A stretch of 64,000 bases of DNA from a phage. The DNA lies in the NCBI GenBank assembly GCA_012401045.1, contig GCA_012401045.1_4704.1; one strand, 5' to 3'. The position numbers were made by a program, and so were the translations under genes. The notes beneath the pieces were generated by a model. The model saw nothing but the letters and a program-made list of their open reading frames with translations, was not told where the DNA came from and did no database searches. Positions 6,320-60,439 of this stretch are shown here, in pieces (position 1 is the first letter of the stretch; every line of letters begins with the position of its first letter).

Positions 6320-6383
6320 AGCCTCAAAAAAAAAAAACGAAAAAATAGGAAAACGGCGTTCATCCCTAAAAAGGATGAACGCC
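6320..6383 (-). terminator. intrinsic terminator (minus-strand sense)
   Basis: Perfect 11-bp stem 6355-6365/6373-6383 (GGCGTTCATCC...GGATGAACGCC), followed on the minus strand by a long T-run (A12 on plus strand at 6326-6337). Confidence 0.75.
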
Positions 6384-6404
6384 GCGTACCGTTATATCGA
6401 ACGA

Positions 6405-11138: not shown

Positions 11139-11456
11139 TTAGTTTGCACGTAAGAAATGACCTAGAACCGTTACAATTGGAAACAGTCCTGTAACCGTAT
11201 TATCACCCGAAAACATCATCTTTGAGTCGTTAACGGTGATGAAACGGATGTCGGTTGCGGATCCGTCGATAGCGACAAAACGCATTGAGTTCGGTGGAAG
11301 GTCCTCAACCACTTCCACGAGGTACTCGCGATTATCAAAGGCTTCTTTAACACGACGCATGAAACGAATCAAGGTTCCTTCCGCGTCAGCTTCCAAATGA
11401 CCTAAGATATCGCGATTATTACGAATAGCGAATACAGCCATTTTAAACATACTCAT
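11139..11456 (-). CDS. hypothetical protein
   Basis: 105-aa ORF with AAGAGGA RBS; conserved 20-nt motif lies ~70 nt upstream. Confidence 0.45.
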   Translation of the reverse strand: MSMFKMAVFAIRNNRDILGHLEADAEGTLIRFMRRVKEAFDNREYLVEVVEDLPPNSMRFVAIDGSATDIRFITVNDSKMMFSGDNTVTGLFPIVTVLGHFLRAN

Positions 11457-11526
11457 CTTGACATCCTCTTATATTGGATTGGTTGCTAATAATTCAAGGT
11501 GAAGCTGATTACTGCATTGCTTCACC

Positions 11527-11546
11527 TAAGTAATATAGCCGTGAAA
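11527..11546 (-). promoter_or_regulatory. conserved upstream motif copy 1 (candidate phage promoter)
   Basis: Plus-strand TAAGTAATATAGCCGTGAAA, 20/20 identical to 41604-41623; minus-sense TTTCACGGCTATATTACTTA lies ~70 nt upstream of the start codon at 11456. Confidence 0.4.
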
Positions 11547-11564
11547 ATTAATGTATTAACCCAT

Positions 11565-39423: not shown

Positions 39424-39470
39424 GTCCTATACGAACATGAAAAACCGTTAATTTTTACCGTAGTCGCGTG

Positions 39471-39746: not shown

Positions 39747-39812
39747 CTTTATCTCCTTAACAGGTGCTGGTAACGCAGCATAAACCCTCCCCGAAGGGAG
39801 GGCGATTAACGA

Positions 39813-40849: not shown

Positions 40850-40871
40850 TCATTATTCTCCGCTTTCATGT

Positions 40872-41558
40872 TTAACACATGATTTCACCATGTTTCTTTT
40901 CGACATACGTATAAACATCATCCAAATAAGCAATGAGTTTATCACGATCCGCACAAAGCGATTTAATCGCCGCAATCTCTTTCATATAAAGCTGCTGACC
41001 TAACGCTGGATACGTAATCCAAGCGTAGCCGTCAGGCGCAAATTTAGAAATAAGATAATCGGCGGTTTCCTGTAATGCGAACTCTTTGCTCATCTGACCG
41101 TAACGATGTTCGATTGCGCGGATACCAAAACGTTCGCTATCAAGACGACCCATATCCGCCAGACGAAGCACCTGAGAAGCAACCGAGCTGCGTGGACCAG
41201 AGTACGAGGCACGATGTTCAGCAATAAGTACACGTATCTCTTCGATGTCTTCCGGTGTGAAAATATGCTGCTCGTTACGAAGCAGAATAACCGACGCACG
41301 AATACCCCCGATAAGGTGGTGGTAGGTTCTGTTTTCATGGCAAGCGATATCATGCATAAAAGCAGCTGTTAATAGACGGCGGCGTTCGGTAGGTCTAATA
41401 ATCCCAACCACATCAGCAAGTTCATTTGCCAGTTCAACAACAGCAAGCACATGTTCTTCTTGATGTGCAAGATCGTTCTTCCGAATATTTTCAATTACTT
41501 CAGCGCGTGTTTCCTGAGATAAGAAATTTAAACAATCCAACGAATATAAAGATTTCAT
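40872..41558 (-). CDS. HD-domain phosphohydrolase-like protein
   Basis: H ... HD arrangement (HQEEHVLAV ... AAFMHDIACHE) typical of HD-domain metal sites; conserved 20-nt motif ~45 nt upstream. Confidence 0.45.
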   Translation of the reverse strand: MKSLYSLDCLNFLSQETRAEVIENIRKNDLAHQEEHVLAVVELANELADVVGIIRPTERRRLLTAAFMHDIACHENRTYHHLIGGIRASVILLRNEQHIFTPEDIEEIRVLIAEHRASYSGPRSSVASQVLRLADMGRLDSERFGIRAIEHRYGQMSKEFALQETADYLISKFAPDGYAWITYPALGQQLYMKEIAAIKSLCADRDKLIAYLDDVYTYVEKKHGEIMC

Positions 41559-41603
41559 CGCACGTACCTCTTTGAATCTATTAATAAATTTTCTTTACTC
41601 ACG

Positions 41604-41623
41604 TAAGTAATATAGCCGTGAAA
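41604..41623 (-). promoter_or_regulatory. conserved upstream motif copy 2 (candidate phage promoter)
   Basis: Identical 20-mer ~45 nt upstream of the start codon at 41558. Confidence 0.4.
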
Positions 41624-41702
41624 GGATTTGTGTTGGCCCGTTTCGATGCCCATCGTATTTTATGGATTGTCGAATGACGTCATTTTAAGGGACATCCCCG
41701 GC

Positions 41703-41737
41703 CTCCTCCCCAGGAAAGGTGTGGGGAGGAGTTTTTA
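41703..41737 (+). terminator. terminator-like hairpin plus T-tract in divergent intergenic region
   Basis: Stem CTCCTCCCC/GGGGAGGAG followed by TTTTTA on the plus strand, directly upstream of the SNF2 helicase gene. Confidence 0.45.
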
Positions 41738-41766
41738 TCATACATTCTATTAAATCGAGCGCGATT

Positions 41767-43848
41767 ATGTTGGATAGAATCAATCGTCTAATGAACCGAA
41801 TAACGGTTAAAAATCAGAGTAACAATACCGTGCATATCGGGGGTATCGATGCCTGGCGTCTTTCAGATGACATTCAGCGAATATGGGGTACCTCCCGATT
41901 TACGAAACATATGTTTCGTAATTTCTCTTCTAGTGGACTCAGCCTCCACAACTTTTACCTCCCCGATTTCGTTTATATTCTCGAGACGATCATCGAAGCA
42001 AAGAATACCCGCAGTAACAAACGCATGCTGAAACACCTTATTGAGGTACTGCTACAGGAAACCTGGTTGCAAAATACCACAATCGAGCAACCTGCAATCC
42101 TCGATAAAGCACGCATGAACAAAATGCTAACGCTCTCTTTGTTCGATTATCAAGATGAGTTTATCGACATCTATAACCGTAACGTACCTAAATATCGACT
42201 GAAAGGATACGTGTGCGCGATGGGTGCCGGTGCGGGTAAAACGATCACCGCGTTGGCATTAAGCGCCGCAATGAACGTCGATGTATTTGTGGTCTGCTGT
42301 CCTAAGAACACGATGCGTTCAGCATGGCAATCCGATGTAAACAAAGCCATCGTTGACCCTGCAACAGAAACCGCGTTCTGGTCAGATACGATGCCACCAT
42401 CACAGCTGCAGAAAAGCGATAAGTACTATTTTCTGCATTACGAATCGATGGGTTTATTAAACGATGTAATGATCAAGCATAAACGCACCGCGAAGCGCGT
42501 GTTGATCGTGGTTGACGAAAGCCATAACTTCAACGACAAGAACAGCCAACGTTCCCAACGACTGGTTGATCTCGTACAGACGATGCGTCAGACCATGAAT
42601 GCGGATGTGCATGTCTTGTTTATGTCAGGTACGCCCGTTAAACAGATGGGTTCTGAGATGATCCCATGTTTAGGTTGTATCGACCCGATGTTCCAAGGAC
42701 AGGTGGTTGATAGCTTCAAAGCAATTTACGGTTTAACCAGCAGTCGCGCTAACGATATCCTCAGACATCGTCTTGGGTTCATGATGCATGTCGTACCTAA
42801 AGAAGCTTATCGTAAAACCCGGCCGGAAGTTCAGGATGTTTACGTGAAGCTCCCTAACGGTAGCGATTATACCATCTCAAGTATCCGCGACGACATGGCG
42901 ATATTTGTACGCGATCGGGCGAAGTATTACAAGGATAACTGGGGGCATTACAGAAAGATTTTTGATGACGCCTTGGACTACTATCGTAAGACTATTCGTA
43001 CCGACGGAGAACGTAAAGAGCTATCTCGATACGAATCGATTGTTGCTCGTTTCCAGAAAGGTTACGATCCCGTCAGAGACAAAGAAGATGCGATGTTCTG
43101 CAACACGTTTGAAAAACGTTCCATCATGCCGGTTCTTCCTTCTGATTTAAGAGTTGCTTTCAAAGACGCTAAGAGTGTCATCAAGTACGTTGGGTTGAAA
43201 ATTCAGGGTGAAGCGTTGGCACGTGTTCTAGGTGCAGCCCGCATTCAGTGTCATGTCGACATGGTGGAGTACATCGACTTCGAAGGGTACATCAACAACG
43301 CTGAAGCCAAAGTGTTGATCTTCACGTCGTACGTTCAGGTGGTTGAGCGCGTCGACAACCTGCTTCGCGATGCGGGTTTCTTACCTGAACCCATTTACGG
43401 GAAGACCAACAAAAACATCAACCAGATACTTGCTCGCTTACGGGACGATCCTGACAGCGGTCCCGCTATCGCAACATTTGATAGTTTAGCTGAAGGGGTT
43501 CCAATGTTGATGTGTAACGTGGGTCTCTTCTTGAACAATCCGTGGCGCTCATCCGATGAAATCCAGGCCATCAGCCGTCTCGACCGTGTAGGGCAAACAC
43601 AACCCGTTCGGATTTATCGTTTCATGTTAGATACAGGAAGCGAGGGTAACGTTTCTACACGCAGCCACGAAATCATGGAGTTAAGCCGACAGCTTGTTGA
43701 AGAAATCACGGGTGTCAAATACGTGGTGAACAAGCAAGACGATGTTAACTTGCAAGAAACGCTGGCGATGGAAGGATACGATCAATACGTTACCGTAAAC
43801 ACCACGGAATACGATATTAAACCACGACCTGCGTTCTTGGAATGGTGA
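41767..43848 (+). CDS. SNF2-family (SF2) helicase/ATPase
   Basis: Walker A GAGAGKT, Walker B/motif II VVDESHN, motif VI QAISRLDRVGQ. Track start 41719 is a GTG inside a hairpin; ATG at 41767 preferred, but its RBS is weak. Confidence 0.7.
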   Translation: MLDRINRLMNRITVKNQSNNTVHIGGIDAWRLSDDIQRIWGTSRFTKHMFRNFSSSGLSLHNFYLPDFVYILETIIEAKNTRSNKRMLKHLIEVLLQETWLQNTTIEQPAILDKARMNKMLTLSLFDYQDEFIDIYNRNVPKYRLKGYVCAMGAGAGKTITALALSAAMNVDVFVVCCPKNTMRSAWQSDVNKAIVDPATETAFWSDTMPPSQLQKSDKYYFLHYESMGLLNDVMIKHKRTAKRVLIVVDESHNFNDKNSQRSQRLVDLVQTMRQTMNADVHVLFMSGTPVKQMGSEMIPCLGCIDPMFQGQVVDSFKAIYGLTSSRANDILRHRLGFMMHVVPKEAYRKTRPEVQDVYVKLPNGSDYTISSIRDDMAIFVRDRAKYYKDNWGHYRKIFDDALDYYRKTIRTDGERKELSRYESIVARFQKGYDPVRDKEDAMFCNTFEKRSIMPVLPSDLRVAFKDAKSVIKYVGLKIQGEALARVLGAARIQCHVDMVEYIDFEGYINNAEAKVLIFTSYVQVVERVDNLLRDAGFLPEPIYGKTNKNINQILARLRDDPDSGPAIATFDSLAEGVPMLMCNVGLFLNNPWRSSDEIQAISRLDRVGQTQPVRIYRFMLDTGSEGNVSTRSHEIMELSRQLVEEITGVKYVVNKQDDVNLQETLAMEGYDQYVTVNTTEYDIKPRPAFLEW

Positions 43849-43854
43849 TTAAGA

Positions 43855-46770: not shown

Positions 46771-49032
46771 TTACAATTCAAAATCTTCATCGATAACACG
46801 CTGGGTAAGCACTTTGTCGCTGAAGAACTCCACCTTGCGCTGATGGTATTTACGGTGCGCTTCGATAGAAGTACATACCAGATACCAGAACGTTGGCGTC
46901 ATTCCTTCAAACTTTCCTTTCAGCTGACGCAGTCGCCCCAACACCTGAATGTTACCGGTTCGTGACCCCATCGCTAATGTCATGAACGTCATCACCAAGT
47001 CAGGAAGGTCGATACCTGTACCTGCCGATTTCACCGTTGTAACGCTAATATCGTTATCCAGCAAGACCATGAAATCTTCTTCAGCGGTATAAGGACCGAT
47101 CTCTAACTCAGGGATACGTTCACTGAGATAATGCGACAACGACTTACACATATCGACGGTTGCACAATACACCAGCATCTTCATACCTTCCTGATACTGG
47201 TTCATGAAACCCTTGATAATAACGGTATAGATGAAGTTAAAATACGCGAGTTTGAGTTGCTTGTTCTTCATGATAGACTGTTCGAATATCGTGTGTGAAT
47301 AAGCTCCACCAAACCCTTTGTATCTGACTTTATCTGTACTGCGTAGTCGGTACGTTACCGCATTTACCGCAATGTATTTCTTGTATTCGCCTTTCGCATA
47401 ACGAGCTTCTTTCGGATACATCAAATACAGCATCTGTTCGATAAACGGATCATCGGATACCGCTGTTGCCGACAGATAAATGATTTCCGGAATATTGGCG
47501 TAACACTTGACCTTAAACAAGAAATGCAATGCTTCGTGACACTCGTCATGAATCAGCAAACCTATGCCGGTCTTTTCCCAAAACTCAGCGGGATGAAAGG
47601 CATATGGCGCAACGCAGTTATTCTTCTCGTAGTCCGCAATATAACGTTGGAACATGTTCAAGGAGAACAATGCGATTTTAAAGTCGAGTTCACCTTGTTC
47701 AACCAAGGTTTGAAACTCCAACATACTGTAACGAGGAATGTCGGGATGCGGTGGATCCTCCTTAGCGTTCCCGCGTATCTCGATAACGTCCCCTGGTTCC
47801 ATCCCGAAGAAGTTCAGCAGTGAGCTTCGCCAACCTGGCATATACCGTGGAGAAAGTATAATGCCTGTGCGCACACCCCGTCTGAACACGATTTCCTGCG
47901 ACATCGCGGTGTTATGCGTGACGATGTGGTCTTTAATAACATAAAGGCTTTCGTCATTGTCCACCGTGATGCAACGTGCTTTCGCTTTCACTGTCGGTAC
48001 GATGCTATCAATCGCTAAACCAGGAAGCCGGTTAACGGGGAGATCGTCTGGAACCTCAATGTCGTCAGGAATAAGCTTACGCAAATCGGAATGATAAATT
48101 AATGTCTCCATCGTGTAACTATCGATGGGGCATTTATACGCGATTCCTCCTAACTGATAAGCCAACTCCCAAACCTTGGCCGTTATCTGCGAATCGACGG
48201 TTCTGACCGCAAGGTGAGCTTGCCCGTTTCTGATTCTCAGTTCACAGCGACCTTTGATTACCGCCTTAAATTCCTCGATACCGACGAGTTCTTTCGGTTC
48301 GTAAAGTCGGATTCTTATTGGACGAGATCGAGCAGGTCTGTCGTAAAGACATTCCATGATTTCGTCCGTGCTGAGAACCTTATCGGGGTCAGTACACCGC
48401 CAGAGATGATCGCCACACGCTTCAACCATCCTACCGTCTTCAAAGAAGATAGCATGAAGCTGAATATCGTCATGATCAAATATAGCGGTTACGTTCGTCG
48501 GTAACCCATCCGCACCAACAACCTGATCCCCTACCTGAAGCTCACCAATCGGCTTCCAACCTCCTGGAACCTTCACGGGTGTGGTAAGCCGTACCGCTTT
48601 CCCTGACCCCGTTTGAGCGGTGTTTAGGCTCATTCTGAAGGGGGTATCCTTACCCCCGTCCATGTACTCCAACCATTCTTGCTGATCTTCACGCCATGGA
48701 AACTTCCATTTCTTTACGAACTCCACTTCTTTACCTGGTACCGGATCGTGATAGACGATTTCCAACCACTCTTTTCGTATCCCTCGGGAAAAGATAAAAT
48801 CCAAAAACGATTTCAACTGTTCACGGAGTAAGTATACCTCGCTATAATCGCTTCTTGCCGCGGCATACGTGTTTATGGTATCGGTAACCATTCTCCGTGT
48901 ACGAGGGTCACGCCGTTTCCTCAGATGCAAACAACGGTCTCGAAGGTAATGGCCGATAAGATGGGCAAATCGAAGTCCGTATCCGCTCAGCCTCATGCCA
49001 TGCGAGAAGACGTCGATACGAGCTAACTTCAT
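46771..49032 (-). CDS. SF2 DExH-type helicase with an intein-like insertion in the P-loop
   Basis: AQTGSGK then ~229-aa insertion then TAMSQ (reconstituting GSGKT); downstream DECH (motif II), SAT (motif III) and QVLGRLRQ (motif VI). Confidence 0.6.
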   Translation of the reverse strand: MKLARIDVFSHGMRLSGYGLRFAHLIGHYLRDRCLHLRKRRDPRTRRMVTDTINTYAAARSDYSEVYLLREQLKSFLDFIFSRGIRKEWLEIVYHDPVPGKEVEFVKKWKFPWREDQQEWLEYMDGGKDTPFRMSLNTAQTGSGKAVRLTTPVKVPGGWKPIGELQVGDQVVGADGLPTNVTAIFDHDDIQLHAIFFEDGRMVEACGDHLWRCTDPDKVLSTDEIMECLYDRPARSRPIRIRLYEPKELVGIEEFKAVIKGRCELRIRNGQAHLAVRTVDSQITAKVWELAYQLGGIAYKCPIDSYTMETLIYHSDLRKLIPDDIEVPDDLPVNRLPGLAIDSIVPTVKAKARCITVDNDESLYVIKDHIVTHNTAMSQEIVFRRGVRTGIILSPRYMPGWRSSLLNFFGMEPGDVIEIRGNAKEDPPHPDIPRYSMLEFQTLVEQGELDFKIALFSLNMFQRYIADYEKNNCVAPYAFHPAEFWEKTGIGLLIHDECHEALHFLFKVKCYANIPEIIYLSATAVSDDPFIEQMLYLMYPKEARYAKGEYKKYIAVNAVTYRLRSTDKVRYKGFGGAYSHTIFEQSIMKNKQLKLAYFNFIYTVIIKGFMNQYQEGMKMLVYCATVDMCKSLSHYLSERIPELEIGPYTAEEDFMVLLDNDISVTTVKSAGTGIDLPDLVMTFMTLAMGSRTGNIQVLGRLRQLKGKFEGMTPTFWYLVCTSIEAHRKYHQRKVEFFSDKVLTQRVIDEDFEL
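47911..48597 (-). mobile_element. putative intein (Hint domain, about 229 aa) within the helicase gene
   Basis: N-terminal AVRLTTPVKVPGGWKPIGELQVGDQVVGADG resembles Hint block A; C-terminal RCITVDNDESLYVIKDHIVTHN followed by Thr resembles blocks F/G (HN plus nucleophile). Confidence 0.5.
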
Positions 49033-51035
49033 AACGTGATTACATCCTCCGGTTTAGGTTCTTTACGCGGTAACAGCATGTAGTCGATCGGATGATCCGG
49101 CTTCATGGTTGGGATATAACTGTTCGGGTTTTGGAACGCATCCAGTTGCTCTTGGTGAGCGAACTTCATACTCAAGGAGCGCATGTTCATGTTCTTCTTG
49201 AAGGTACTGAAGTATCGTGTTGTTCCCTGTTTCGGCATGCGATAATCTTTCGTGTGTGGCGAACGAATCATGCTGGCGTAGAGAATAACATCGAGATGCG
49301 AAAGGTTCATTCGTAGGCGCTGGGCACACAGACGATGCCAATAATACAGCACGTTTGCAACTTCTTCCGGTGTTGCTTCGTCTTCCGAGAGGAATCCGGC
49401 ACTGAAAGAACCTTTCCCGAATTTGAATTCACGTTCGATTTCTTTTGCGTACTCCATCATGTTTTTGTGGATTAACGGCATCTGGAATAACATACGTGAA
49501 TTGTCCCAATGTTTCAAGTCGAAAATCACAATCCCGTCAGACGTCACTTCCCAGCTATGGCGTTTAAGATAACGGATAAACGCTTTACTCGGTACAACAG
49601 GACGGCCGCAGAAATCGAAATTGACTTTGAGCTTACGATAGCTTTCATCTTTCCTGTCGTAAATCTCCATATCGCAAAGCGTCATGTTAAACAGACGTTG
49701 CGGTATCAGCGAACCGATTTCTTCCGCTTCCGCTACGTCGTACAACATGTTTGCAAGACCTAACTTCATCTTAATCAACACGTGTTTACCTTTCAGCTCA
49801 CGTGCGAGTTTGATGTCGTTCATGTTCTGGCTATAGCGAAGGATATGTTGATATTCCGGTGGGATTGGTGCTGTGGATACCGTTGACGAACCATCGTGGT
49901 GTTTGGTAGAAAGAATGTTCTGCGTTACCTGTTGCGAACAGGTACGCGCTGCACCATCGCCGACATTATCAGTCAATGCGAAGTTATGGCTTAATTCACC
50001 ATAACACGTCGTACATACCCCAGCAGGATCGGGATGATGACAATAGTTAACGGAGCGCATGCGCACCGTCGTGCCGATCAATTCTTTCATGTGTGGTTGT
50101 ATCGCTACCAACGAACCGTCATCACGAATAATGAATCGACCATGGAAGCCACGCAGGTCGGTCTCATCACGGATTGGCATCGGGATGGTCTCTTTACTAC
50201 CACAATCACCAGGATGAAGTCGTTGTACAACCGCTGTCGCTATCTGAAGTTCACGACCGAAATATTCAGACTTTTTAATCTGCTCTTTGTTGAACAGCAA
50301 CGATTTCGCCGCAGAACGACTTTCTTTCAAGCTGTCGGGAAGAGAGATCAAACCAGCTGCGTACGACCGCATTACTGGATCACGGAATATCTCGGAGTTA
50401 ATATCAGTCAAGAATCCACGCATCCCAATACACTGTAGCACCTGCCCAATCGAAACGTGTTCGGTTCTTACCGCACGTGCAATAGGGTTTGCATGTAACG
50501 TTTTATCGGTGCTCAGTACCTTGGTCAGTTTCTTGTATGCGCTTTCGATACCTTCACGGGTGGGTTCCGCTTCGGCGATGATTTTCTTAACTTCGGGGTG
50601 TACAGTAATCTGATAAAAATCATCCGCGCAAATCGTTGTTACGTATTCCTCCAACGCATACGTAAAGAAGTTATACACATTGTTAAACATATCGAACAAT
50701 GCTTTCCAGAGAACCTCACGATTCTCTTGTGGGTAAGCATACATGCATTGACGATACGCGGCGCTTTGCAACGCAACCGATGAACCCGCTGTGAACTTGC
50801 GTTTATCAACCAGGTTCTCTTTTGTCAGTGGTGTCTCAGGATACATGCGATGCACAGACCAGTGCATGTAACTAAAGAAAATGCGTCGCGCACGCAATTC
50901 ATGAACGCCATCGTCCATCTCGATATATACACGGTCATTAGGCTGTGCCCACTCGAACACCTCATCAACCGGCCAATGCATAAGCTCGCGTGCCCTCACA
51001 CGACGTTTCGTGGTGGTCGTCTGTGTTATAGTCAT
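49029..51035 (-). CDS. hypothetical protein with Cys/His cluster, translationally coupled to the helicase
   Basis: 668 aa; CHHPDPAGVCTTCYGE cluster; stop overlaps helicase start (ATGA). Confidence 0.5.
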   Translation of the reverse strand: MTITQTTTTKRRVRARELMHWPVDEVFEWAQPNDRVYIEMDDGVHELRARRIFFSYMHWSVHRMYPETPLTKENLVDKRKFTAGSSVALQSAAYRQCMYAYPQENREVLWKALFDMFNNVYNFFTYALEEYVTTICADDFYQITVHPEVKKIIAEAEPTREGIESAYKKLTKVLSTDKTLHANPIARAVRTEHVSIGQVLQCIGMRGFLTDINSEIFRDPVMRSYAAGLISLPDSLKESRSAAKSLLFNKEQIKKSEYFGRELQIATAVVQRLHPGDCGSKETIPMPIRDETDLRGFHGRFIIRDDGSLVAIQPHMKELIGTTVRMRSVNYCHHPDPAGVCTTCYGELSHNFALTDNVGDGAARTCSQQVTQNILSTKHHDGSSTVSTAPIPPEYQHILRYSQNMNDIKLARELKGKHVLIKMKLGLANMLYDVAEAEEIGSLIPQRLFNMTLCDMEIYDRKDESYRKLKVNFDFCGRPVVPSKAFIRYLKRHSWEVTSDGIVIFDLKHWDNSRMLFQMPLIHKNMMEYAKEIEREFKFGKGSFSAGFLSEDEATPEEVANVLYYWHRLCAQRLRMNLSHLDVILYASMIRSPHTKDYRMPKQGTTRYFSTFKKNMNMRSLSMKFAHQEQLDAFQNPNSYIPTMKPDHPIDYMLLPRKEPKPEDVITL

Positions 51036-51180
51036 TATTGCTTTCCGATTTAAATGGTTTTATCATACGGTTTACCAAATCCGTTGGACTTTACTATCGT
51101 TGTGATAGCATCGGGAATCCCTTCCCTTAGGTTATGTAGGTGTTAATATATCTCCACTGCTGACCTTTATGTCGGCAGCA

Positions 51181-51666
51181 CTATCCAGCTTTCTGTTGTA
51201 AAGCGTATGGATCCATAGCGTCTGACATATCCGCAAAAACGGTGAGAATAAACCCCTTTATCTGTCTCACCTCGGTTACACGAAGCCCTTTATCATTGCG
51301 ATATACGTTTTCTTCACCGACTAACTTTGGTCGAATAACATAAACTCCATCAACAAGCGGGAATGTCGGATACGGATAAATACCAATACGAATGATGTTT
51401 GGGTGATCGCCTAGAAGGTCACGTCCAAACTTATCGACTCGACCATAAATCGCCCCATCCGCACCTTCCACTTCAATGAGATCATTTCGAATATCCTGAA
51501 ATAGTTGCTCTAACGTGTCGGCGGGATACGTATATGCGATGCCTAACGCAGGATCCTCGATCGTTTTGACACTGAAACCGTTAAGCCAAACAATCCGTTC
51601 ATCCGCCCATGTTTCTTCATATACCGTTAATCCATCGCCGTATATGTTGGCGTGTGCTATCTCCAT
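51181..51666 (-). CDS. hypothetical protein
   Basis: 161-aa ORF; no motif recognised. Confidence 0.45.
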   Translation of the reverse strand: MEIAHANIYGDGLTVYEETWADERIVWLNGFSVKTIEDPALGIAYTYPADTLEQLFQDIRNDLIEVEGADGAIYGRVDKFGRDLLGDHPNIIRIGIYPYPTFPLVDGVYVIRPKLVGEENVYRNDKGLRVTEVRQIKGFILTVFADMSDAMDPYALQQKAG

Positions 51667-51759
51667 AATCTCATTTCCTCTTCTACGTAGAAATAGATGA
51701 CATGTTGGATATACGTTGCCTTTGCATATATTGCTTTATTTCCGTCAGAAATAACGGAA

Positions 51760-51809
51760 AATAAAACAACGACATAGTTCCCTCCCACCTCCACGTGGGA
51801 GAGGGAGGG
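51760..51809 (-). terminator. hairpin terminator
   Basis: GC-rich imperfect stem CCCTCCCAC...GTGGGAGAGGGAGGG followed on the minus strand by a UUGUUUUAUUUUCC tract. Confidence 0.55.
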
Positions 51810-51822
51810 CTATTCGTGTTTA

Positions 51823-52185
51823 TTACTCTATGCTATCTTCGTCCGTATCTTCCTCTTCAGAACCATCGAACGTTTTCTGCACCGCTGTGGTATCCCAGTT
51901 AGCTGCGTAATCAGCCATCGCTTCGCGCAGCGCTTCTTCACCAGCATCACCAGCCAGGTCAAGTACAACTAAACCCTGTGCGACGTTTTGAGCAACGGTA
52001 TCGATAACGGTTGCATCTTCTTCAAAACTACGTACCGGTTCAATGGTACCTACATCAACAGCGTAGTTCGTGGTTGCTGTAAGCACGGCGACTTGTAGCG
52101 CATTGCTATCTTCATCATGCAGTGCTGCTTCAATACCGATTGGACGAGCCAGTTCTTGCAGTGTTAATTTGCGAATTAAGTTCAT
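51823..52185 (-). CDS. small acidic protein (paralogue family)
   Basis: AQGLVVLDLAGDAGEEAL parallels ARGLMLLELFGEQGRTEL of 52683..53093; N-terminus parallels 52218..52565; acidic C-terminal tail. Confidence 0.45.
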   Translation of the reverse strand: MNLIRKLTLQELARPIGIEAALHDEDSNALQVAVLTATTNYAVDVGTIEPVRSFEEDATVIDTVAQNVAQGLVVLDLAGDAGEEALREAMADYAANWDTTAVQKTFDGSEEEDTDEDSIE

Positions 52186-52217
52186 TATGTTTTCCTCAGG
52201 TGAATGTTAGCAATCGT

Positions 52218-52565
52218 TTAAAACTTTAAAACTTTTTCGATACGATGGTTGACAAGTTCATTGAACGACTCTTCAACTTGTTCAATGATTTCATCAACGT
52301 CGATATCTAATTGTTGGGGTTGGATAACATGCTCTTTCATGGTTTCCAGCCAGTATTCGGCTTTAACCATGACGTTAGCGACGTGTTCGACCTGGCTGCG
52401 TATGTCGACGATCTGGCAGTCAGGATTGTTAATGTCGATGATGTGTCCGTGGTGGTTGATAAAACCTAGCTTGTTTGATGCCCTTACTGCATCACGAGTC
52501 AGTTCTTGCAAAATTAAATTATTGACGTAGTTCACTGCTACGGAACGATTTTCATTATCACTCAT
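52218..52565 (-). CDS. small acidic protein (paralogue family)
   Basis: N-terminal NNLILQELTRDAVR parallels NLIRKLTLQELARPIG of 51823..52185. Confidence 0.45.
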   Translation of the reverse strand: MSDNENRSVAVNYVNNLILQELTRDAVRASNKLGFINHHGHIIDINNPDCQIVDIRSQVEHVANVMVKAEYWLETMKEHVIQPQQLDIDVDEIIEQVEESFNELVNHRIEKVLKF

Positions 52566-52620
52566 ACCAGGGATCCTTTTAAGTCTTCACATTCTAGTGT
52601 TAAGCAGTTAAAATAAACCG

Positions 52621-52671
52621 TTCCTTTAATCAGCATAAACATCCTCCTCCCACCACATGGGCAGGAGGAGG
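52621..52671 (-). terminator. hairpin terminator
   Basis: 8-bp stem CCTCCTCC/GGAGGAGG with 13-nt loop; moderately U-rich downstream on the minus strand. Confidence 0.45.
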
Positions 52672-52682
52672 CGTAATATGCA

Positions 52683-53093
52683 TCAGAAAGGAGGACGATC
52701 TTTAAATTCTAACAACGTGTCTTCGAAGCAAGCGATGAGTTCAGACTGCAATTCGGTACGGCCTTGTTCACCGAAGAGTTCCAGCAACATTAACCCCCGA
52801 GCGGTCTTCGTAGCAACCTCTTCGCAGATGCGGAGATCGTGAACTTCATTATCGTTGACATCTTTGCGTAACTGCGCTGCGATAGGCTTAAGATTGCCGT
52901 TTTCATCGTGTTCGTCACGAAATGCATCATAAGCCGCATCGATGTTCGCGATCCGTGTCAATCCTTCAGAATCCCGCCAGTCTCGATATAATCCAAGCAG
53001 GCGATTATGATTCTTCGTTTTGATGTTCGGTGCTGGAAGGTTGCGCAACAGATGTGGTGTAATCATTGCTATCACGCTATCCGAATGATCCAT
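52683..53093 (-). CDS. small acidic protein (paralogue family)
   Basis: Shares the ...A.GL..L.L.G..G...L motif with 51823..52185. Confidence 0.45.
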   Translation of the reverse strand: MDHSDSVIAMITPHLLRNLPAPNIKTKNHNRLLGLYRDWRDSEGLTRIANIDAAYDAFRDEHDENGNLKPIAAQLRKDVNDNEVHDLRICEEVATKTARGLMLLELFGEQGRTELQSELIACFEDTLLEFKDRPPF

Positions 53094-53104
53094 CGTATAC
53101 CTCG

Positions 53105-55273
53105 TTAGCTTTCGCAGTCATCTGCGTCGATGATTTGTCCGCCAGCAACGTTCAGTTGATGATACAGAATCCTCAACGCACGGTTGCCACCAATGGGATA
53201 CTTCTCGAAGTTGGTTGCGATAGGAATCGCTGACGGCTTATCGGTCGCATAGATGCTTTCAGTGATGCTATCCACCTGTTTTGGATTGTTCGCATAATCC
53301 ATAAAGACGCTTGCGAACCATCCGCCAGCAAAGGCGGTCACTTCGCGATGTTCAGATTCACCACAGTAACGAGTCGGTTGCTCTTTACCCGGAGAACTGT
53401 ATTTATCGCTATTACTGAGCTTCGACGGTAATCCATGCGCCTGCAATTTAGGGATACCCACAGCTGACCAATCGTTCGCCGTCTTCTCCAACATCATGAT
53501 GTACGTGTCACCGATCGCAATATCGTTCTTGGTTGTCCGCCACTGCCCAGAACGTCCACGATACCGTACAGGACCTTTCTTCAACGGGAACTCACGAATC
53601 AGATTCTCCATACGTTCTGAACCTGCTGCGATACTGTCCGTCGGGATATAAACTTCCGTACCATGGCGTTGTACGTACCGTAAATGATCCCATTTATCCT
53701 CATCCGTGATACAGTATTTTTCAACAACCTGTTCCACGAATTCAGGACTGACGATATAGTAGTAGCGCATCAGTGTGTTCCAAGCGGTCTCCAGATCGCC
53801 TGCATCCATCACCGGTTTCAGTTCACGCATGATCTGATCACCAACACCGTTGATGTACGGTGCGTTAACACGACTTAAACTCATCCTTTTGATTACCGTG
53901 CTATCGTCGAACATAAAGTCCGCAACGTTACCCCATTGGTCAACCGGCATTTCATCGTCTTCCATGATGTCGGTTACAACGAATTTATCACCCGCCATAC
54001 CGGTGAATTTAAACCCGATACCTGGGACAACGTCATACGTGTATGTGATGGTCACACGCCAATCATCGAGATTCTCTTTGCGGTAATCGCGGGTTGGTAA
54101 CACATGACGTAGCTGTCCGTTGGGATTGCGGATATCAATACCATGTTCAGCATCAGCCAGGTTCAACCACCACATCACCGTTTGATGATGACGTATCGGC
54201 GTACCAACGCGTTCACGTTCGTACTTACGAACAGCATCCTGAATTCGGGTGTAAAGCAAACCGATTGCGTTCTCGTATTTCAGGAATTGACGATACGGAG
54301 GACGCATCTTCTCTTCCATCATAATCGCACGCTCGCGGGCTTGACGTCCAGAACGACGATGTCGGTCGCTGACAACATCGATATCCGTTACACGCGCATT
54401 CGGTTCCGCGTAAGTGAGATCATCGTAAACATAATCCACACGCTGAAGGTTACACGTCATCATGTCAACAACGCTGAGGATAGGATCGATTTCGCGTGTT
54501 GCTGCAAGTAACCCATCCTTACGAATACGCTCACCGTTCTCGGGTATTGCTTGATATACCTCATCATCACCGTAGAGATTGATTGGGTATCGTGATTTAC
54601 CTGATGTGATCGTTCGCTTCTCAATGCCGGTACTGGTGAAATGCTTCAATACACCACGACGGGCAACACCACCATCCTCGATACACTGATAGAAGCTACC
54701 GAAACACACTTTGCAATCGCGACCGTAACCCCACTCGCGCGTTTCTTGATTGATCGCTGGGCTTTCCATCAAACGAGAATATCGCGGTACGATCTGGCCT
54801 CGACGAAGGGAATGGAACAAGTTGGTTGGTCGAAAACGGAAACCGTACTGCTGATGCATGATGTGATGCTCAGGCACTTCAAGCAAGCGTAGCTCGTGGC
54901 GGTTACCATCCTCTTGGTTTTCGTACAGCACGTAATGCATCGTGTTTGTTTTGATGCTGTTTGCTGTATGCCCCGGTTGGAAACGTGGGATGATATCTAT
55001 GATGCGAGATTCGACTGGAAACTCTACTGACCACGTGTTCTGTCCGTACTGGTATTCGATCCCCGTCGTCAGTCGGGACGGTTTCGCATCTTTGATAACC
55101 AACGCTTGGCTAAGATGTCCACCAAACATCGCAGCGCGCTGTGCTGAGTTATAATGCAGTAGCCCGTTAAGTCCAGTCCCTACGCCAGTATACTCCTGTT
55201 TAATGGGAATGATTTTACCTTCAGCGATTGCCTGCTTCACAGATTCATAAAGAGGTTTTTCTTTATAATGCAT
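53105..55273 (-). CDS. large hypothetical protein, possible divergent RNA polymerase beta-like subunit
   Basis: Track ORF trimmed to ATG at 55273 with AGGAAG RBS. Weak by-eye resemblance to the C-terminal conserved regions of bacterial RpoB (GMAGDKF...EDDEMP...SRVN...GDQI; IGDTYIMMLEK; GESEHREV). Confidence 0.5.
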   Translation of the reverse strand: MHYKEKPLYESVKQAIAEGKIIPIKQEYTGVGTGLNGLLHYNSAQRAAMFGGHLSQALVIKDAKPSRLTTGIEYQYGQNTWSVEFPVESRIIDIIPRFQPGHTANSIKTNTMHYVLYENQEDGNRHELRLLEVPEHHIMHQQYGFRFRPTNLFHSLRRGQIVPRYSRLMESPAINQETREWGYGRDCKVCFGSFYQCIEDGGVARRGVLKHFTSTGIEKRTITSGKSRYPINLYGDDEVYQAIPENGERIRKDGLLAATREIDPILSVVDMMTCNLQRVDYVYDDLTYAEPNARVTDIDVVSDRHRRSGRQARERAIMMEEKMRPPYRQFLKYENAIGLLYTRIQDAVRKYERERVGTPIRHHQTVMWWLNLADAEHGIDIRNPNGQLRHVLPTRDYRKENLDDWRVTITYTYDVVPGIGFKFTGMAGDKFVVTDIMEDDEMPVDQWGNVADFMFDDSTVIKRMSLSRVNAPYINGVGDQIMRELKPVMDAGDLETAWNTLMRYYYIVSPEFVEQVVEKYCITDEDKWDHLRYVQRHGTEVYIPTDSIAAGSERMENLIREFPLKKGPVRYRGRSGQWRTTKNDIAIGDTYIMMLEKTANDWSAVGIPKLQAHGLPSKLSNSDKYSSPGKEQPTRYCGESEHREVTAFAGGWFASVFMDYANNPKQVDSITESIYATDKPSAIPIATNFEKYPIGGNRALRILYHQLNVAGGQIIDADDCES

Positions 55274-55304
55274 AGGACTTCCTATTATCGAATTGAGGTA
55301 CGTC

Positions 55305-55658
55305 ATGTCTAACACGCCCCTGAACGACTTTCTTAAGACAAACCCCGATGACCTCATCCACGATCTTGATTTCAGGAACGTTGTTGAGATGCATCTGGAA
55401 TATTTCAAAAATGCCGGACTGGTCTCTACGATAGACATACCACCCGAACGCGCCTACGAATTCGATGGTAACTTTTATGGATTGTGTCGTGTTCTGCTCG
55501 GTGAGGGCAGTGAACCAATGCACTGGATAACCATGAGACTCAATGGTTATCGCGACCCTACGGAATACACCGCCGATGTTCTAACCATGAAGATTGTCGA
55601 TACAAGCGCAATCAACACATTAAAACAACAGTACCGCACAATCCACTACAGCGCTTAA
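55305..55658 (+). CDS. hypothetical protein (plus-strand island)
   Basis: ATG at 55305 with GAGGT RBS; followed by a hairpin terminator; divergent from the large minus-strand gene. Confidence 0.4.
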   Translation: MSNTPLNDFLKTNPDDLIHDLDFRNVVEMHLEYFKNAGLVSTIDIPPERAYEFDGNFYGLCRVLLGEGSEPMHWITMRLNGYRDPTEYTADVLTMKIVDTSAINTLKQQYRTIHYSA

Positions 55659-57059: not shown

Positions 57060-58646
57060 TTAGAAGTTGCCTTTGGTAGTTACCGCATCCACCAGGTTAA
57101 ACAAATCAACGCTCAGCTTATACACCTCCTGCTGGCTACGGTTGAGCAGCGGGCTGTATGCAGATGGGTTGATGTTCGGCATGGTGTACGGAATCGGTGC
57201 AGAACCGTCAACGCTGATCTTGAACTGGCTGTCCAGGAACAGGTTAATCGCGCCGCTCACCATAACCGCATTCGGGTTGTTGCCCAACATGGAGGGTAGG
57301 ATATTGGTAATCATGTCAGAACGCATTTGTTCAGCAGCACGGTTACAATCGTATCCTTTAATGAACGGCACAGCGTCGGTAACCGCAACCGCCCACTGAC
57401 CAGGCATGATACCGAGTTCTGGGTGACCATGGTTGTCAGCAATGAAACGGAACGATTCCAACATGCGGTATGTCATCGCAGCAGGCATCATTGCAGCAAG
57501 CGATGAACAATACAGCGTTGGATAATCGATCACATCCCAGCTCTGGCTATCGGTCGGCATCCAACCAAACTCGGTGGTTGCTGATGTACCACGACGAGCT
57601 TCCACATACGGGAATAACGTTAAGACATCACGGATATGTTCACCGAACATCCGTTTCATGTCAGCCCAACTCAGGCTACCGCTGAAAGCGAATCCTTCAT
57701 CACGCATAATCGCACCGAATACCGGATGCGCAACCAGAGGTTCTTCACGAACAGCTTGAGCGGCTTCCACGTAAATATCCTCGTTCTCTGCGCTACCTGG
57801 ATGAGACCCGCTTTCGTACGTCTGACGAATAGCACCAACATTATCGAAGGCTTTTCTTAGATAAATGGTTGGGATGTTCGTATCGGCACTAGCGGGTTTG
57901 ATTTTCTCTGTTGCGAAACACATTGCCGCTTCCACACCACGGAAAACCGGTTCCGGTTGCGGTGGGTAGGATGTACGATGAACCACATCAGCGTAGGCGG
58001 GATCGAACTGTTGCATCACGTTCTGCATGGCTGGGTCCATGAACTGGTTATCAAAACCACCATTGCCTACCCAACGTGCTGTTGATGCATAGGTCAGCGT
58101 ATCCTGAACACGAGTACTGAACTGAACATCACGATTAACAGGGTCGTATGCGCCGGTCAACAGGTTCGTTGCGTCCATCGGGGTTGCACGAACGATTTGC
58201 TTACCGAACATATCCGTTGTGGTTGTTTCGGTTACCTGGATTACGTTCGTGAAGAAGAACACCAGTTCATTCGGCAGATCGATAGCACGCGTTGTAAACG
58301 CATCGAGGCTTACAGAATGGTCGGTGTATCCAGAAATGTAATGGACACGCTTGGTTCCTGGTGCGAGGGCCAAGGATTCTTCTACCGCCATCATGAAATG
58401 GAAACGGCGTGTGCCCCAACCATTCGCAATCTCCGAAACCCCCTCAGGTTCTGCAGACTGCTGCAACAAACCGGTTGCAAGCTTATTGATTGCTGATGGT
58501 GTTGTTGCCGTACCGAACCGCGTCGTGTTAATGAAGTCTTCGATGCTACGCATGCTATCTGCGTGGAATCGTAGTGGACGACGTTGTACGTTGTTGTACG
58601 GTGCGGTTTCAACCATCAGTATTTCACGAACATTCATCGGGATCAT
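57060..58646 (-). CDS. hypothetical protein (528 aa)
   Basis: AAGAGGA RBS then A-run before ATG; coupled to the upstream gene (ATGA overlap). Confidence 0.5.
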   Translation of the reverse strand: MIPMNVREILMVETAPYNNVQRRPLRFHADSMRSIEDFINTTRFGTATTPSAINKLATGLLQQSAEPEGVSEIANGWGTRRFHFMMAVEESLALAPGTKRVHYISGYTDHSVSLDAFTTRAIDLPNELVFFFTNVIQVTETTTTDMFGKQIVRATPMDATNLLTGAYDPVNRDVQFSTRVQDTLTYASTARWVGNGGFDNQFMDPAMQNVMQQFDPAYADVVHRTSYPPQPEPVFRGVEAAMCFATEKIKPASADTNIPTIYLRKAFDNVGAIRQTYESGSHPGSAENEDIYVEAAQAVREEPLVAHPVFGAIMRDEGFAFSGSLSWADMKRMFGEHIRDVLTLFPYVEARRGTSATTEFGWMPTDSQSWDVIDYPTLYCSSLAAMMPAAMTYRMLESFRFIADNHGHPELGIMPGQWAVAVTDAVPFIKGYDCNRAAEQMRSDMITNILPSMLGNNPNAVMVSGAINLFLDSQFKISVDGSAPIPYTMPNINPSAYSPLLNRSQQEVYKLSVDLFNLVDAVTTKGNF

Positions 58647-60235
58647 TTTATTTTTTTTCCTCTTAAATTTACTACGTGTTCATTTAATCGAACAACTAAT
58701 TGCACAAGCTGCTGACGGATATCTGCTGGACAAAGCATCAATCCTTTACGGTCAGCTGGGACTTTCTCAAGGATTTCCGGGCCTGCTGCTGAAACATCCC
58801 AGTCCCATTCACAAAACGCATCGGCCACCATGTTAATACCGACAACCGGTAAAGTTGTACGTTCATCTTCATACATGGCGTGTGGATACAATTTATTGAC
58901 AGTAATGATCTCCTGTGGTTTTAATTGGTGGATAATCTGATAAACATCGTCGCGTTTGACCTGGATACCTACGGTCAGCGCGGCCAGTTGAGGAAAACCC
59001 CAATGGTCTAACAAACAAGCTGCGATCGCTAACGCTTTTGCCTGATGCACGGCTTCAATCGGTGCCAGACTTCTCGCCGGAAGATGGCTATCAAGCAACC
59101 ATTGCGCCAGTGCTCGGCATCCGCGGTTGATTGGTTTTAACTCAACGGTGTCATCGTGTTTAGCGTACGTGTATCCGTCGTAACGTTTTGCGATACGCGC
59201 ATACATGTCTTCAACTTTACCGTAAGGTGCCGTTTCGTCGACGTCGTGCAACACACGTTCCATCTGGGTAAGATACGCAATGTCGAGAATGAGTACACGT
59301 GGTGAACGTTTATCTTTCACCATCAACGCATCAATCACGCCTTGACTGTCTTCATCTTGCGCATTCCCTCGCGGCGTTTTCTCGCGAATCGGTCCGCTGA
59401 AACGTCGTTCCGTACAAAGGTTATTCACATAGCTGAAGATCAGTGTTACTAGATGCGTACAACTCACTAACACCCCATCTTTAACGACAGGCTGTACAGC
59501 TTGGTCCAAGTCGCGTACGGCGAGACGGCGGACGATGGCTTGTGAACGCAACCAGCCGGGCACTTTCTCCGTCGACATGTAATCCACGGTCATCGACAGC
59601 GTGATCTTTTTATCACCCGTCTGTGCGCGGATATAGTCTTCCAGTCGGTCGTAAGCGGCGATATCATGAATGCGTGTTTTATACATCAACGACATAGCCA
59701 CTTCTTCTTTACGAACCGTTCCGTACGTTTTCCCTGCGTCAATCAGAAACTCTGCCCAAATCGGCACCATCAGACGGACGTAGATCGCTAACGCCGTTAA
59801 CTCAACGTAATCATTTCGTAAATAGGTTTTCTCAGGTATGTCATCCTCACCTAATGTTGTTTTCATGTCCGGTGGTAATTTTACCCAACCTGGGGTATTA
59901 CACAATGCCAGAATCTCTTCGTACACAACCGGTTTGTAAATTTCACCAACAGCGCGACTCAACTCCTCCATTTGTTGTTGTGGAGCAATGTAGTTATCCA
60001 TCGCTTCACGTGCTTTAACGAACCCTTCGAAGATGTCGTCAATTCGACGTGGGTTCTTTTGTTCTATCCAGGCGAGATACTTGTTAATCTCCCGCATCTG
60101 ATTGCTAGCCATATCCCCATCAATCTTGATGTAACCCTGACCTGAAAATTCCACAGTACGTCCATCACGGTGTTTGATGAGATAGTGATCCAGCTTTTCT
60201 TTTCCTTGCGTCGTAATGACGGGCACTATGTGCAT
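58643..60235 (-). CDS. hypothetical protein
   Basis: Track ORF trimmed to ATG at 60235 with AGAGG RBS; conserved motif ~56 nt upstream. Confidence 0.5.
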   Translation of the reverse strand: MHIVPVITTQGKEKLDHYLIKHRDGRTVEFSGQGYIKIDGDMASNQMREINKYLAWIEQKNPRRIDDIFEGFVKAREAMDNYIAPQQQMEELSRAVGEIYKPVVYEEILALCNTPGWVKLPPDMKTTLGEDDIPEKTYLRNDYVELTALAIYVRLMVPIWAEFLIDAGKTYGTVRKEEVAMSLMYKTRIHDIAAYDRLEDYIRAQTGDKKITLSMTVDYMSTEKVPGWLRSQAIVRRLAVRDLDQAVQPVVKDGVLVSCTHLVTLIFSYVNNLCTERRFSGPIREKTPRGNAQDEDSQGVIDALMVKDKRSPRVLILDIAYLTQMERVLHDVDETAPYGKVEDMYARIAKRYDGYTYAKHDDTVELKPINRGCRALAQWLLDSHLPARSLAPIEAVHQAKALAIAACLLDHWGFPQLAALTVGIQVKRDDVYQIIHQLKPQEIITVNKLYPHAMYEDERTTLPVVGINMVADAFCEWDWDVSAAGPEILEKVPADRKGLMLCPADIRQQLVQLVVRLNEHVVNLRGKKIK

Positions 60236-60290
60236 AACAACCTCTTTTCGCGGTTCCCTGTTAAAACGTCTTCTGTGACGTCTACCACAA

Positions 60291-60310
60291 AGGTAATATA
60301 AGCGTGAATA
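60291..60310 (-). promoter_or_regulatory. conserved upstream motif copy 3 (candidate phage promoter)
   Basis: AGGTAATATAAGCGTGAATA shares the GTAATATA-N3-GTGAA core; ~56 nt upstream of the start codon at 60235. Confidence 0.35.
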
Positions 60311-60439
60311 ATTTTGGATTCCGGCTGAGTTATCGCTCAGCATGCAAGGCATCCCGCCGAAGCGAGACACCTTGCACTAACGGAAAATATTCGCGTTACC
60401 TTCTGAATCGAAGACTCAGAATGCGATGCTAAAGCATGA

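Follow-up and report, generated by a model that had tools for sequence, protein, structure and literature searches.

A repeated motif of a Goslar-like phage as the probable early promoter of its injected RNA polymerase

In phage phiKZ the virion RNA polymerase (vRNAP) initiates at 28-32 early promoters, which have an AT-rich element about 10 nt before the start and a T-rich element upstream of -19. The early promoters of 201phi2-1 are conserved in the -10, -20 and -30 regions. Predicted early consensus sequences were tabulated for 201phi2-1 (TTAWTAVAA_HYWTTTRARR_BTATATTACDWHDGTG), OBP (BSHAWWWWWTTTYARRYAKATATTATYWWADTG) and phiKZ (TATATTAC) as well as for N1M2 and EL (PMC7058600). The chimallin gene of phiKZ, PHIKZ054, has a primary start site with the early motif and a middle promoter too. 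The early promoter P028 of phiKZ, with its start at 45583, was validated by Ceyssens 2014 and Wicke 2021 (supplement, bioRxiv 10.1101/2023.10.13.562163). Here, we analysed a stretch of 64,000 nucleotides of phage DNA (contig GCA_012401045.1_4704.1, in full length called the window), in which a related motif occurs in three copies on the minus strand. The copy at 41604-41623 had been noticed earlier as a candidate phage promoter from the letters of the DNA alone, which we refer to as the sequence-only reading.

Escherichia phage vB_EcoM_Goslar, a jumbo phage that forms a nucleus, belongs to the family Chimalliviridae and is hence phiKZ-like; it serves as the E. coli model for such phages. The part of the window from 38000 to 46000 was 95.6% identical to Goslar (MK327938.1, 237,307 bp, Goslarvirus) over 89% of the query, and no other match to it was obtained in the phage collection at the sensitivity used. 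The window corresponds to about 101-165 kb of Goslar with some indels, and the proteins encoded just behind the motif copies are 97-100% identical to Goslar_00105, 00159, 00175 and 00165. The 38000-46000 part aligned in two pieces and the offset between the coordinates of window and Goslar shifts by about 1.8 kb across the window, which points to several indels or gene replacements relative to Goslar, for example near the 484-aa plus-strand gene at 43948-45402.

The motif copies and their likeness to known early promoters

The 20-mer TAAGTAATATAGCCGTGAAA has exactly two exact matches in the window, at 11527-11546 and 41604-41623, as had been stated in the sequence-only reading, and two or more matches were reached in none of 100 dinucleotide-preserving shuffles. 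A close variant had also been named at 60291-60310. This third site has the shared core and matches the 16-mer TTCACGNNTATATTAC exactly (60293-60308, minus strand), but it differs from the 20-mer at 5 of the 20 positions (15/20 identity ungapped) and is more than 3 mismatches away. When up to 2 mismatches were allowed, the 16-mer was found at 3 sites of the window, compared to 0.54 expected. The octamer TATATTAC occurs three times in the 64 kb, each time on the minus strand within one of the three motif copies. Its count alone is not above chance (shuffle mean 2.6), whereas the extended motif is.

In gene sense the sequences are TTTCACGGCTATATTACTTAGGTGA for copy 1, TTTCACGGCTATATTACTTACGTGA for copy 2 and ATTCACGCTTATATTACCTTTGTGG for copy 3, and all three have in common the core TTCACG-N2-TATATTAC-N4-GTG on the minus strand. 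The elements TTCACG and TATATTAC had been recognised before with a spacer of N2-3; the core is present, with the spacer N2 in all three copies and never N3. The pattern TTCANNNNNTATATTAY, with a spacer of N5 before the GTG, gave no matches; the actual spacer is N4. The distance of 45-70 nt to a minus-strand start codon was likewise reproduced, since the next minus-strand ATG follows the 20-mer after 70 nt in copy 1 (11456) and 45 nt in copy 2 (41558), and copy 3 after 55 nt (60235). The 575-aa open reading frame behind copy 3, which is extended to a GTG, does not have the likely start and ATG 60235 is preferred. A scan of the window with a position weight matrix (PWM) returned the three copies at 49.5-51.5 bits and one weak match at 51113-51164. 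The three copies are the following:

11522..11548, minus strand: putative early promoter, copy 1; TTTCACGG at 11547-11540, TATATTAC at 11537-11530 and TTAGGTG at 11529-11523; predicted start A 11522; PWM score 51.5; upstream of the Goslar_00105 homolog.
41599..41625, minus strand: putative early promoter, copy 2 (the site noticed earlier); TTTCACGG at 41624-41617, TATATTAC at 41614-41607 and TTACGTG at 41606-41600; predicted start A 41599; PWM score 49.5; between divergent genes, ahead of the gene for the HD-domain hydrolase (Goslar_00159 homolog).
60285..60311, minus strand: putative early promoter, copy 3; ATTCACGC at 60309-60302, TATATTAC at 60300-60293 and CTTTGTG at 60292-60286; predicted start G 60285; PWM score 49.9; upstream of the Goslar_00175 homolog.

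The window motif fits the consensus sequences of 201phi2-1, OBP and N1M2; the agreement with 201phi2-1 covers nearly every position and extends to TTAAT upstream and GTG downstream. An early element of the TATATTAC type in phiKZ-like phages had been named in the sequence-only reading, and this was right: TATATTAC is the published early consensus of phiKZ (PMC7058600) and the phage of the window is phiKZ-like. Upstream of the chimallin gene, Goslar has ATTGAAAAAAATTTCAGGGTTATATTACCTAGGTGA and phiKZ has AATGAAAAAAATTTGAGATTTATATTACTAAATTGA, which are identical at 28 of 36 positions, and the phiKZ site is the promoter P028. In the aligned part, the two chimallin proteins share only about 25% identity. 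RAY (TTCAAAAAAATTACAAGTCTATATTACGTATGTGT), Eowyn (ACATAAACGTATATTACTTAGGTGA) and PhiPA3 (ATTGAAAAAAATCTCACATCTATATCACAGGTGTG) also have related sites ahead of their chimallin genes.

The phiKZ start at 45583 is the A of TTGA, 8 nt past the C of TATATTAC. In the register of P028, transcription would start at the A of the conserved TGA, with G at -1 and T at -2. The octamer TAYATTAC, which hardly varies, would span -15 to -8, TTTCAC about -25 to -20 and an A/T-rich element about -37 to -27. The last two, the A/T-rich element being TTAAT or an A-run, correspond to the upstream elements of phiKZ and 201phi2-1. When carried over to the window, the register predicts starts at 11522, 41599 and 60285 with 5' untranslated regions of 66, 41 and 50 nt, respectively. 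The Goslar counterparts of these predicted starts would be at about 113782, 142785 and 160776.

Distribution, expression and conservation in Goslar and its relatives

The whole Goslar genome with its GenBank annotation was scanned, allowing TAYATTAC, and the PWM was built. The scan resulted in 13 sites at 31.9-56.4 bits with the next best match at 15.4; this gap is partly self-scoring, because the matrix was trained on these same 13 sites. Every one of them is on the minus strand and has the same orientation as the genes that follow. The octamer TATATTAC occurs 10 times in Goslar, always on the minus strand, and TAYATTAC is found in 13/13 sites, which have a consensus of about TTAAT..A.(A/T-rich)TTTCACGnCTAYATTACCTnnnTGA. 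By the GenBank annotation, 12 of the 13 sites are outside of annotated coding sequences, 31-152 nt before a minus-strand start codon, and the remaining one overlaps a hypothetical open reading frame of 62 aa at its 5' end. A random position has a chance of about 0.05, by a crude gene model, to be intergenic and not more than 250 nt upstream of a minus-strand gene start. This greedy model over-extends genes to the first in-frame start and misplaces 4 of the 13 sites inside open reading frames. It served for the background rate alone, and the site-by-site calls were taken from the GenBank annotation. A published listing of the Goslar promoter motif was not found in the literature searched, the coverage of which is incomplete, and one may exist.

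When the synthesis of ChmA, the nuclear shell protein, is blocked, the Goslar infection halts in a membrane-bound early infection vesicle (Armbruster et al., bioRxiv 10.1101/2023.09.20.558163). GFP-tagged vRNAP, a protein shown in Goslar virions, colocalises with the injected DNA in the arrested vesicle and the early programme alone is expressed (bioRxiv 10.1101/2023.09.20.558163). We used the reads per gene of the ChmA knockdown and the control from all rows of Supplementary Table 2 of this work. The late genes showed a log2 fold change (log2FC) of -3 to -8, and the early or continuously expressed genes were at about -1 to +1.3. The early genes form 10 contiguous blocks, 001-004, 014-021, 037-040, 044-047, 070-075, 094-159, 162-189, 192-210, 219-221 and 235-236 (GenBank numbering). 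Since the early genes are all on the minus strand, each block begins, at its 5' end, with the gene of the highest number. A motif site was located directly upstream of the 5'-most gene in 10/10 blocks (004, 021, 040, 047, 075, 159, 189, 210, 221 and 236). In Goslar, no early block was without a motif site, and no motif site was found before a late block or a plus-strand late gene. The presence of motif copies at the 5' end of every early-expressed block bears out the earlier proposal of a phage-specific promoter.

The remaining 3 Goslar sites, at genes 105, 175 and 182, are internal to blocks and each coincides with a rise of the read density in the knockdown. At the counterpart of copy 1, the density rose 2.05-fold from 0.51 reads/nt in gp106 to 1.04 in gp105. 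At the counterpart of copy 3, it rose 2.1-fold from 0.49 reads/nt in gp176 to 1.03 in gp175, and the log2FC changed from -0.5 to +0.9. The third internal site showed a 1.4-fold increase (gp183 0.72, gp182 1.0 reads/nt). Copy 2 corresponds to the 5' edge of the early block gp094-159. Here, the plus-strand late helicase gene gp160 had 0.005 reads/nt with a log2FC of about -5.3, and gp159 had 0.49 reads/nt with about +1.0.

Genes 190 and 191 were intermediate, with log2FC values of about -0.7 and -1.1. Such an intermediate response (log2FC -0.4 to -1.3) was seen for the Goslar genes 176-181, just upstream of copy 3, and for 190-191, between the chimallin gene and the next early block. In the window, genes 176-179/180 span about 60440-64000. 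These intermediate genes may use a different (middle) promoter, because no motif was found before them. The read density also falls about 5-fold after the single-gene unit gp182.

The best match below the threshold in the window scan, with 15.4 bits, precedes the 668-aa RNA polymerase beta-like gene (Goslar_00165 homolog):

51123..51150, minus strand: probable early promoter, weaker and of a variant form; TGGAGATATATTAACACCTACATAACCTAAGGGA, including TACATAAC at 51138-51131; predicted start near 51123.

This is probably a fourth, weaker early promoter, because it resembles the RNA-seq-supported Goslar site at 187639 (TGGAGAT...ACCTACATTACCT) and the knockdown read density in Goslar rises 1.6-fold from gp166 to gp165 (0.47 to 0.74 reads/nt). 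The site is unchanged in three genomes, and the divergence begins just upstream and ends exactly at the start of the motif.

The conservation of the copies was followed in relatives. Copy 2 and its surroundings are invariant in the Goslar-like IMGVR_UViG_3300011560_000001, and the copy itself is unchanged in three Goslar-like genomes. Copy 1 is identical in Goslar. In UViG_3300011560, about 18 substitutions have accumulated in the 60 nt upstream of about -33 of copy 1, and the region that begins with CATTAATTTTCACGG and ends with GTGAAGC differs by one C/T change, at a Y position of the consensus. At the orthologous position, the related motifs TTTTTTTCGGACAGATATTACTACATGG and TTTCAGCCACGTATTATTCATCTG are found in two distant chimalliviruses, whose protein is 24% identical to that encoded behind copy 3; each follows directly after a terminator hairpin. 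The exact 23-nt pattern TTCACGNCTAYATTACYTNNNTG was found in only 7 contigs of IMG/VR (2.9 million contigs), all of which are 183-238 kb long.

Interpretation and competing explanations

The motif, its genome-wide distribution, the coincidence with the boundaries of the Goslar early blocks and the homology to a mapped phiKZ promoter are all observed. We consider it very likely that the three copies, probably together with the degenerate fourth, are early promoters of a Goslar-like chimallivirus and are read by the virion-packaged, injected multisubunit vRNAP. The exact start sites in the phage of the window are inferred, as is the recognition by the vRNAP rather than by another polymerase, which we deduce from the infection stage and the homology.

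Several points weigh against this assignment. The literature that we read shows no in vitro recognition by a vRNAP for any chimallivirus, and no specificity subunit of the vRNAP is identified in it. The RNA-seq data are from Goslar and not from the phage of the window, and they are gene-level values at 30 min in a knockdown strain. They are apparently unstranded, since the plus-strand genes gp145 and gp172 inside the minus-strand blocks look early. The rises of about 2-fold at the internal copies 1 and 3 could also be produced by differences in RNA stability. The predicted starts use a register carried over from phiKZ, where ONT-cappable-seq has a resolution of about 2 nt. Finally, copy 1 fits a weak sigma-70 pattern, TTAATA-16-TATATT, with 9/12 matches.

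The last point leads to a host sigma-70 promoter with TATATT as the -10 element, which would be transcribed by the E. coli RNA polymerase at the start of infection. TATATT agrees with TATAAT at 5/6 positions, and TTAATA is found 16 nt upstream in copy 1. However, copies 2 and 3 had no match when spacings of 16-18 nt were scanned and the match of copy 1 is at the level of shuffled sequences, in line with the earlier statement that the motif does not look like a sigma-70 -35/-10 pair. The conserved TTCACG is separated from TATATT by only 2 nt, a distance that does not fit a -35 element, and the TTAATA of copy 1 is TCAACG in a close relative that keeps the motif itself. A sigma-70 promoter makes no use of the conserved C at the end of TATATTAC or of the downstream TGA. 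The homologous promoters of phiKZ are part of a programme that does not depend on the host RNA polymerase, and the Goslar genome is transcribed inside the vesicle together with the vRNAP (bioRxiv 10.1101/2023.09.20.558163). A host promoter is therefore highly improbable. About equally hard to defend is a middle or late promoter for the non-virion RNA polymerase. Such a second polymerase is encoded in the same genomes, PHIKZ054 has a middle promoter in phiKZ as well, and at 30 min control cells continue to express the genes behind copies 1-3. Yet the motif-led genes are fully expressed before the nucleus is formed, when the late genes drop 8- to 100-fold, and no copy is located before any late block or plus-strand late gene. 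In register, the motif has neither the TACT near -22 after an A-run that marks middle promoters nor the TATG at the start that marks late ones.

The copies could instead be a repeated element other than a promoter, such as an operator, a target for recombination or an endonuclease, or the edge of a small mobile element, with an incidental position at gene starts. A relative has a cassette of 38-50 nt inserted exactly after TAYATTACCT at three sites, which shows that insertion or duplication can take place at this site; also, stem-loops straddle the predicted start. A promoter, however, predicts the 10/10 early-block 5' ends, the 13/13 orientation and the homology to a phiKZ site with a mapped start, none of which is required by another kind of element, and an operator that overlaps a promoter would still leave the sites as promoters. 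We regard a non-promoter element as very unlikely. A chance similarity between AT-rich intergenic regions would account for the octamer count, which is no higher than in the shuffles, but not for the pair of 20-mers (0/100 shuffles) or the 16-mer (3 versus 0.54). With 13 oriented Goslar sites, mostly intergenic (12/13), and a motif that is conserved across genera, chance is almost inconceivable as the explanation.

The early promoters of coliphage N4 are read by a single-subunit virion RNA polymerase and have a DNA hairpin with a 5-7-bp stem and a 3-nt loop before the start. A hairpin promoter of this type was tried and rejected for the window, as the DNA from -35 to -1 of the three sites was structureless when folded (minimum free energy 0 to -1.2 kcal/mol, z -0.3 to +0.5).

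Transcription units, leader structures and comparison with known systems

The first genes behind the three copies, the RNA polymerase genes of the window and the terminator of the early unit are listed here:

11139..11456, minus strand: first gene behind copy 1; 105 aa, Goslar_00105 homolog, 97% identical.
40872..41558, minus strand: first gene behind copy 2; HD-domain phosphohydrolase, 228 aa, Goslar_00159 homolog, 99% identical; Pfam HD, E = 5.6e-8.
58643..60235, minus strand: first gene behind copy 3; 530 aa, conserved chimallivirus protein phrog_3209 (PHROG E = 4e-68), Goslar_00175 homolog.
53105-55438 and 49029-51035, minus strand: pair of RNA polymerase beta-like genes, separated by small genes; part of the early block behind copy 3.
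6353..6385, minus strand: intrinsic terminator, 15-bp stem and T-tract, just after the Goslar_00094 homolog (terminator scan and sequence).

The 105-aa protein had no Pfam or PHROG match and belongs to no known family, and the 530-aa protein is 100% identical to Goslar_00175 over the residues 1-528. Both beta-like genes match the PHROG RNA polymerase beta subunit (E = 2e-180 and 2.6e-169). Their Goslar homologs gp171 and gp165 are early, with log2FC values of about +1.0 and +0.5, as expected for non-virion subunits; therefore, the window genes (49029..55438) presumably encode subunits of the non-virion RNA polymerase. The other polymerase-like genes of Goslar, 078, 230 and 231, are expressed late, as expected for virion subunits. 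At the terminator, the Goslar read density falls across the early-to-late boundary from 0.68 reads/nt in gp094 to 0.003 in gp093.

In the arrangement we propose, copy 2 would open a minus-strand early unit of about 35 kb from a start near 41599, with about 65 mostly unknown small genes and, by the Goslar annotation, genes for DNA ligase, thymidylate synthase and an exonuclease homolog. Copy 1 (start near 11522) would re-boost this unit about 5 kb ahead of the terminator at 6385-6353, which would end the unit fed by copies 2 and 1. Copy 3 (start near 60285) would drive the operon with the genes for the non-virion polymerase subunits, helped by a weaker internal promoter near 51123.

The Goslar genes from gp159 down to gp094 (window about 6405-41558, minus strand) are about 65 consecutive genes that behave as one early stretch of about 35 kb and have only two such promoters. 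The annotation nevertheless places terminators within the stretch (Goslar 132985-133005 and 133619-133642), which implies that the early polymerase reads through over long distances or that termination is counteracted. A GC-rich hairpin, CTCCTCCCCACACCTTTCCTGGGGAGGAG, is found on both strands at window 41700-41730 (Goslar 142891-142915), in the divergent region that separates copy 2 from the late helicase gene on the plus strand and about 40 nt ahead of the start of this gene. In Goslar it is annotated as a terminator, which is implausible where two genes diverge; the hairpin may instead belong to the 5' leader of the late mRNA or act as an insulator. Right after the early terminator, at window 6270-6352 (minus strand), there is a T-run with CCCATGGTATGAATTAGG, about 40 nt before the late gene 5436-6266. 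Judged from its letters, the TATG in this region could be a candidate start of a phiKZ-type late promoter.

Stem-loops were observed close to the predicted starts. In the window, the one at copy 1 is the following:

11498..11526, minus strand: stem-loop that spans the predicted start of copy 1; arms GGTGAAGC and GCTTCACC with a 13-nt loop; minimum free energy -12.3 kcal/mol, z = -2.54.

Further stem-loops are located at copy 3 (60243-60289, minus strand, z = -2.85) and at the weak site (51085-51131, minus strand, z = -2.39), and copy 2 has no such stem-loop at its predicted start. In 8 of the 13 Goslar sites (15067, 49732, 86705, 113797, 160791, 166069, 172978 and 226695), a stem-loop starts no more than 1-2 nt away from the conserved RTGA of the predicted start. 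The mean folding z-score of the leaders was -1.50, compared to -0.29 for random genomic 40-mers (p = 0.0036, composition-corrected). The raw folding energy compared to random genomic 52-mers was not significant (p = 0.07). Because only the composition-corrected scores were significant, we keep the hairpin as a side observation. As the stem straddles the start derived from phiKZ, part of it may exist at the DNA level only.

Both arms of the copy 1 stem are invariant in UViG_3300011560, where 4/4 substitutions are in the loop, and in a more distant clade the stem AAGAC/GTCTT is replaced by the compensatory AATAAT/ATTATT. The inserts of 38-50 nt in IMGVR_UViG_3300011560_000001 follow exactly after TAYATTACCT in three early promoters, those of the gp175, gp075 and gp021 orthologs (L009 1398-1450, L023 and L025). 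Each insert is a perfect hairpin, CCTyyrTGA...TCAyrrAGG, with a CCTnnnTGA repeat; two of the three also have a GCGAC...ACGTTA segment and the third a second hairpin. The same leader occurs once in Goslar, at the gp236 promoter (226640-226695, minus strand), and the cassette had 0 occurrences in the window. The cassette has the look of a leader module that duplicates or moves; alternatively, part of the promoter may have been duplicated in tandem. The constant stem with a mutating loop, the compensatory changes and the hairpin cassette in three promoters suggest that the stem-loop is selected. It is a rather doubtful possibility that the promoter is one half of a composite element with a 5'-proximal stem-loop, which would be a dedicated signal of early transcripts or an initiation element at the DNA level. 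If so, the stem-loop might serve vesicle export, protection of the 5' end or anti-termination over the early operons of about 35 kb.

In conclusion, the motif is very probably the Goslar-lineage version of the known early promoter of the Chimalliviridae, a correct but ordinary finding, since this promoter type is already known from phiKZ-like phages. Conceptually it adds little: the class, the TATATTAC core and the link to the virion polymerase are established in phiKZ and its relatives. What it provides is an early-promoter map for Goslar-like coliphages, with 13-14 sites in Goslar, 3-4 in the window and starts predicted to about 2 nt. The map explains the block structure of the published Goslar early transcriptome and shows which RNA polymerase genes of the window are early and presumably non-virion. 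It also offers short sequences that are expected to be read only by the injected virion polymerase and are useful for reporters or engineering inside the early infection vesicle. The near-identical chimallin-gene promoters of an E. coli and a Pseudomonas phage, despite the low identity of the chimallins, point to a conserved polymerase-promoter recognition in the family.

Compared with the described systems, the early promoters of phiKZ are the closest. They have the same TATATTAC core, a T-rich element upstream of about -19 and, at the chimallin gene, an A-run further upstream, and they precede early operons including the chimallin and the non-virion polymerase genes. phiKZ differs in host and genus from the E. 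coli Goslarvirus (about 45% GC) and has 28-32 copies, compared to 13-14 per 237 kb in Goslar. In Goslar, TTTCACG (about -24 to -18) and TGA (-2 to +1) are more strongly conserved and all copies are on one strand. The phiKZ starts were mapped by primer extension, differential RNA sequencing (dRNA-seq) and ONT-cappable-seq, whereas those of Goslar are predicted only. With the motifs of 201phi2-1, OBP and N1M2 (TTAWTAVAA_HYWTTTRARR_BTATATTACDWHDGTG; TTTYARRYAKATATTATYWWADTG), the Goslar motif shares the three-part layout of an upstream TTAAT-type element, TTTyA and an AT-rich octamer with a downstream GTG; the OBP and N1M2 motifs are bioinformatic predictions only. The Goslar octamer takes one of two forms, TATATTAC or TACATTAC, and the second of these is also that of phage EL; subtypes without TTTCA are found at the Goslar sites 187639, 201944 and 226695 and at window 51123-51150. 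E. coli sigma-70 promoters are alike in the TATAAT-like hexamer before the start and the A/T-rich upstream DNA, but the motif has no -35 element at 16-18 nt, and its C at -8 and TGA at the start are outside the sigma-70 consensus. As in coliphage N4, a polymerase injected with the genome would read a small set of dedicated early promoters; in contrast to N4, the window sites have no hairpin and the polymerase is a multisubunit enzyme.

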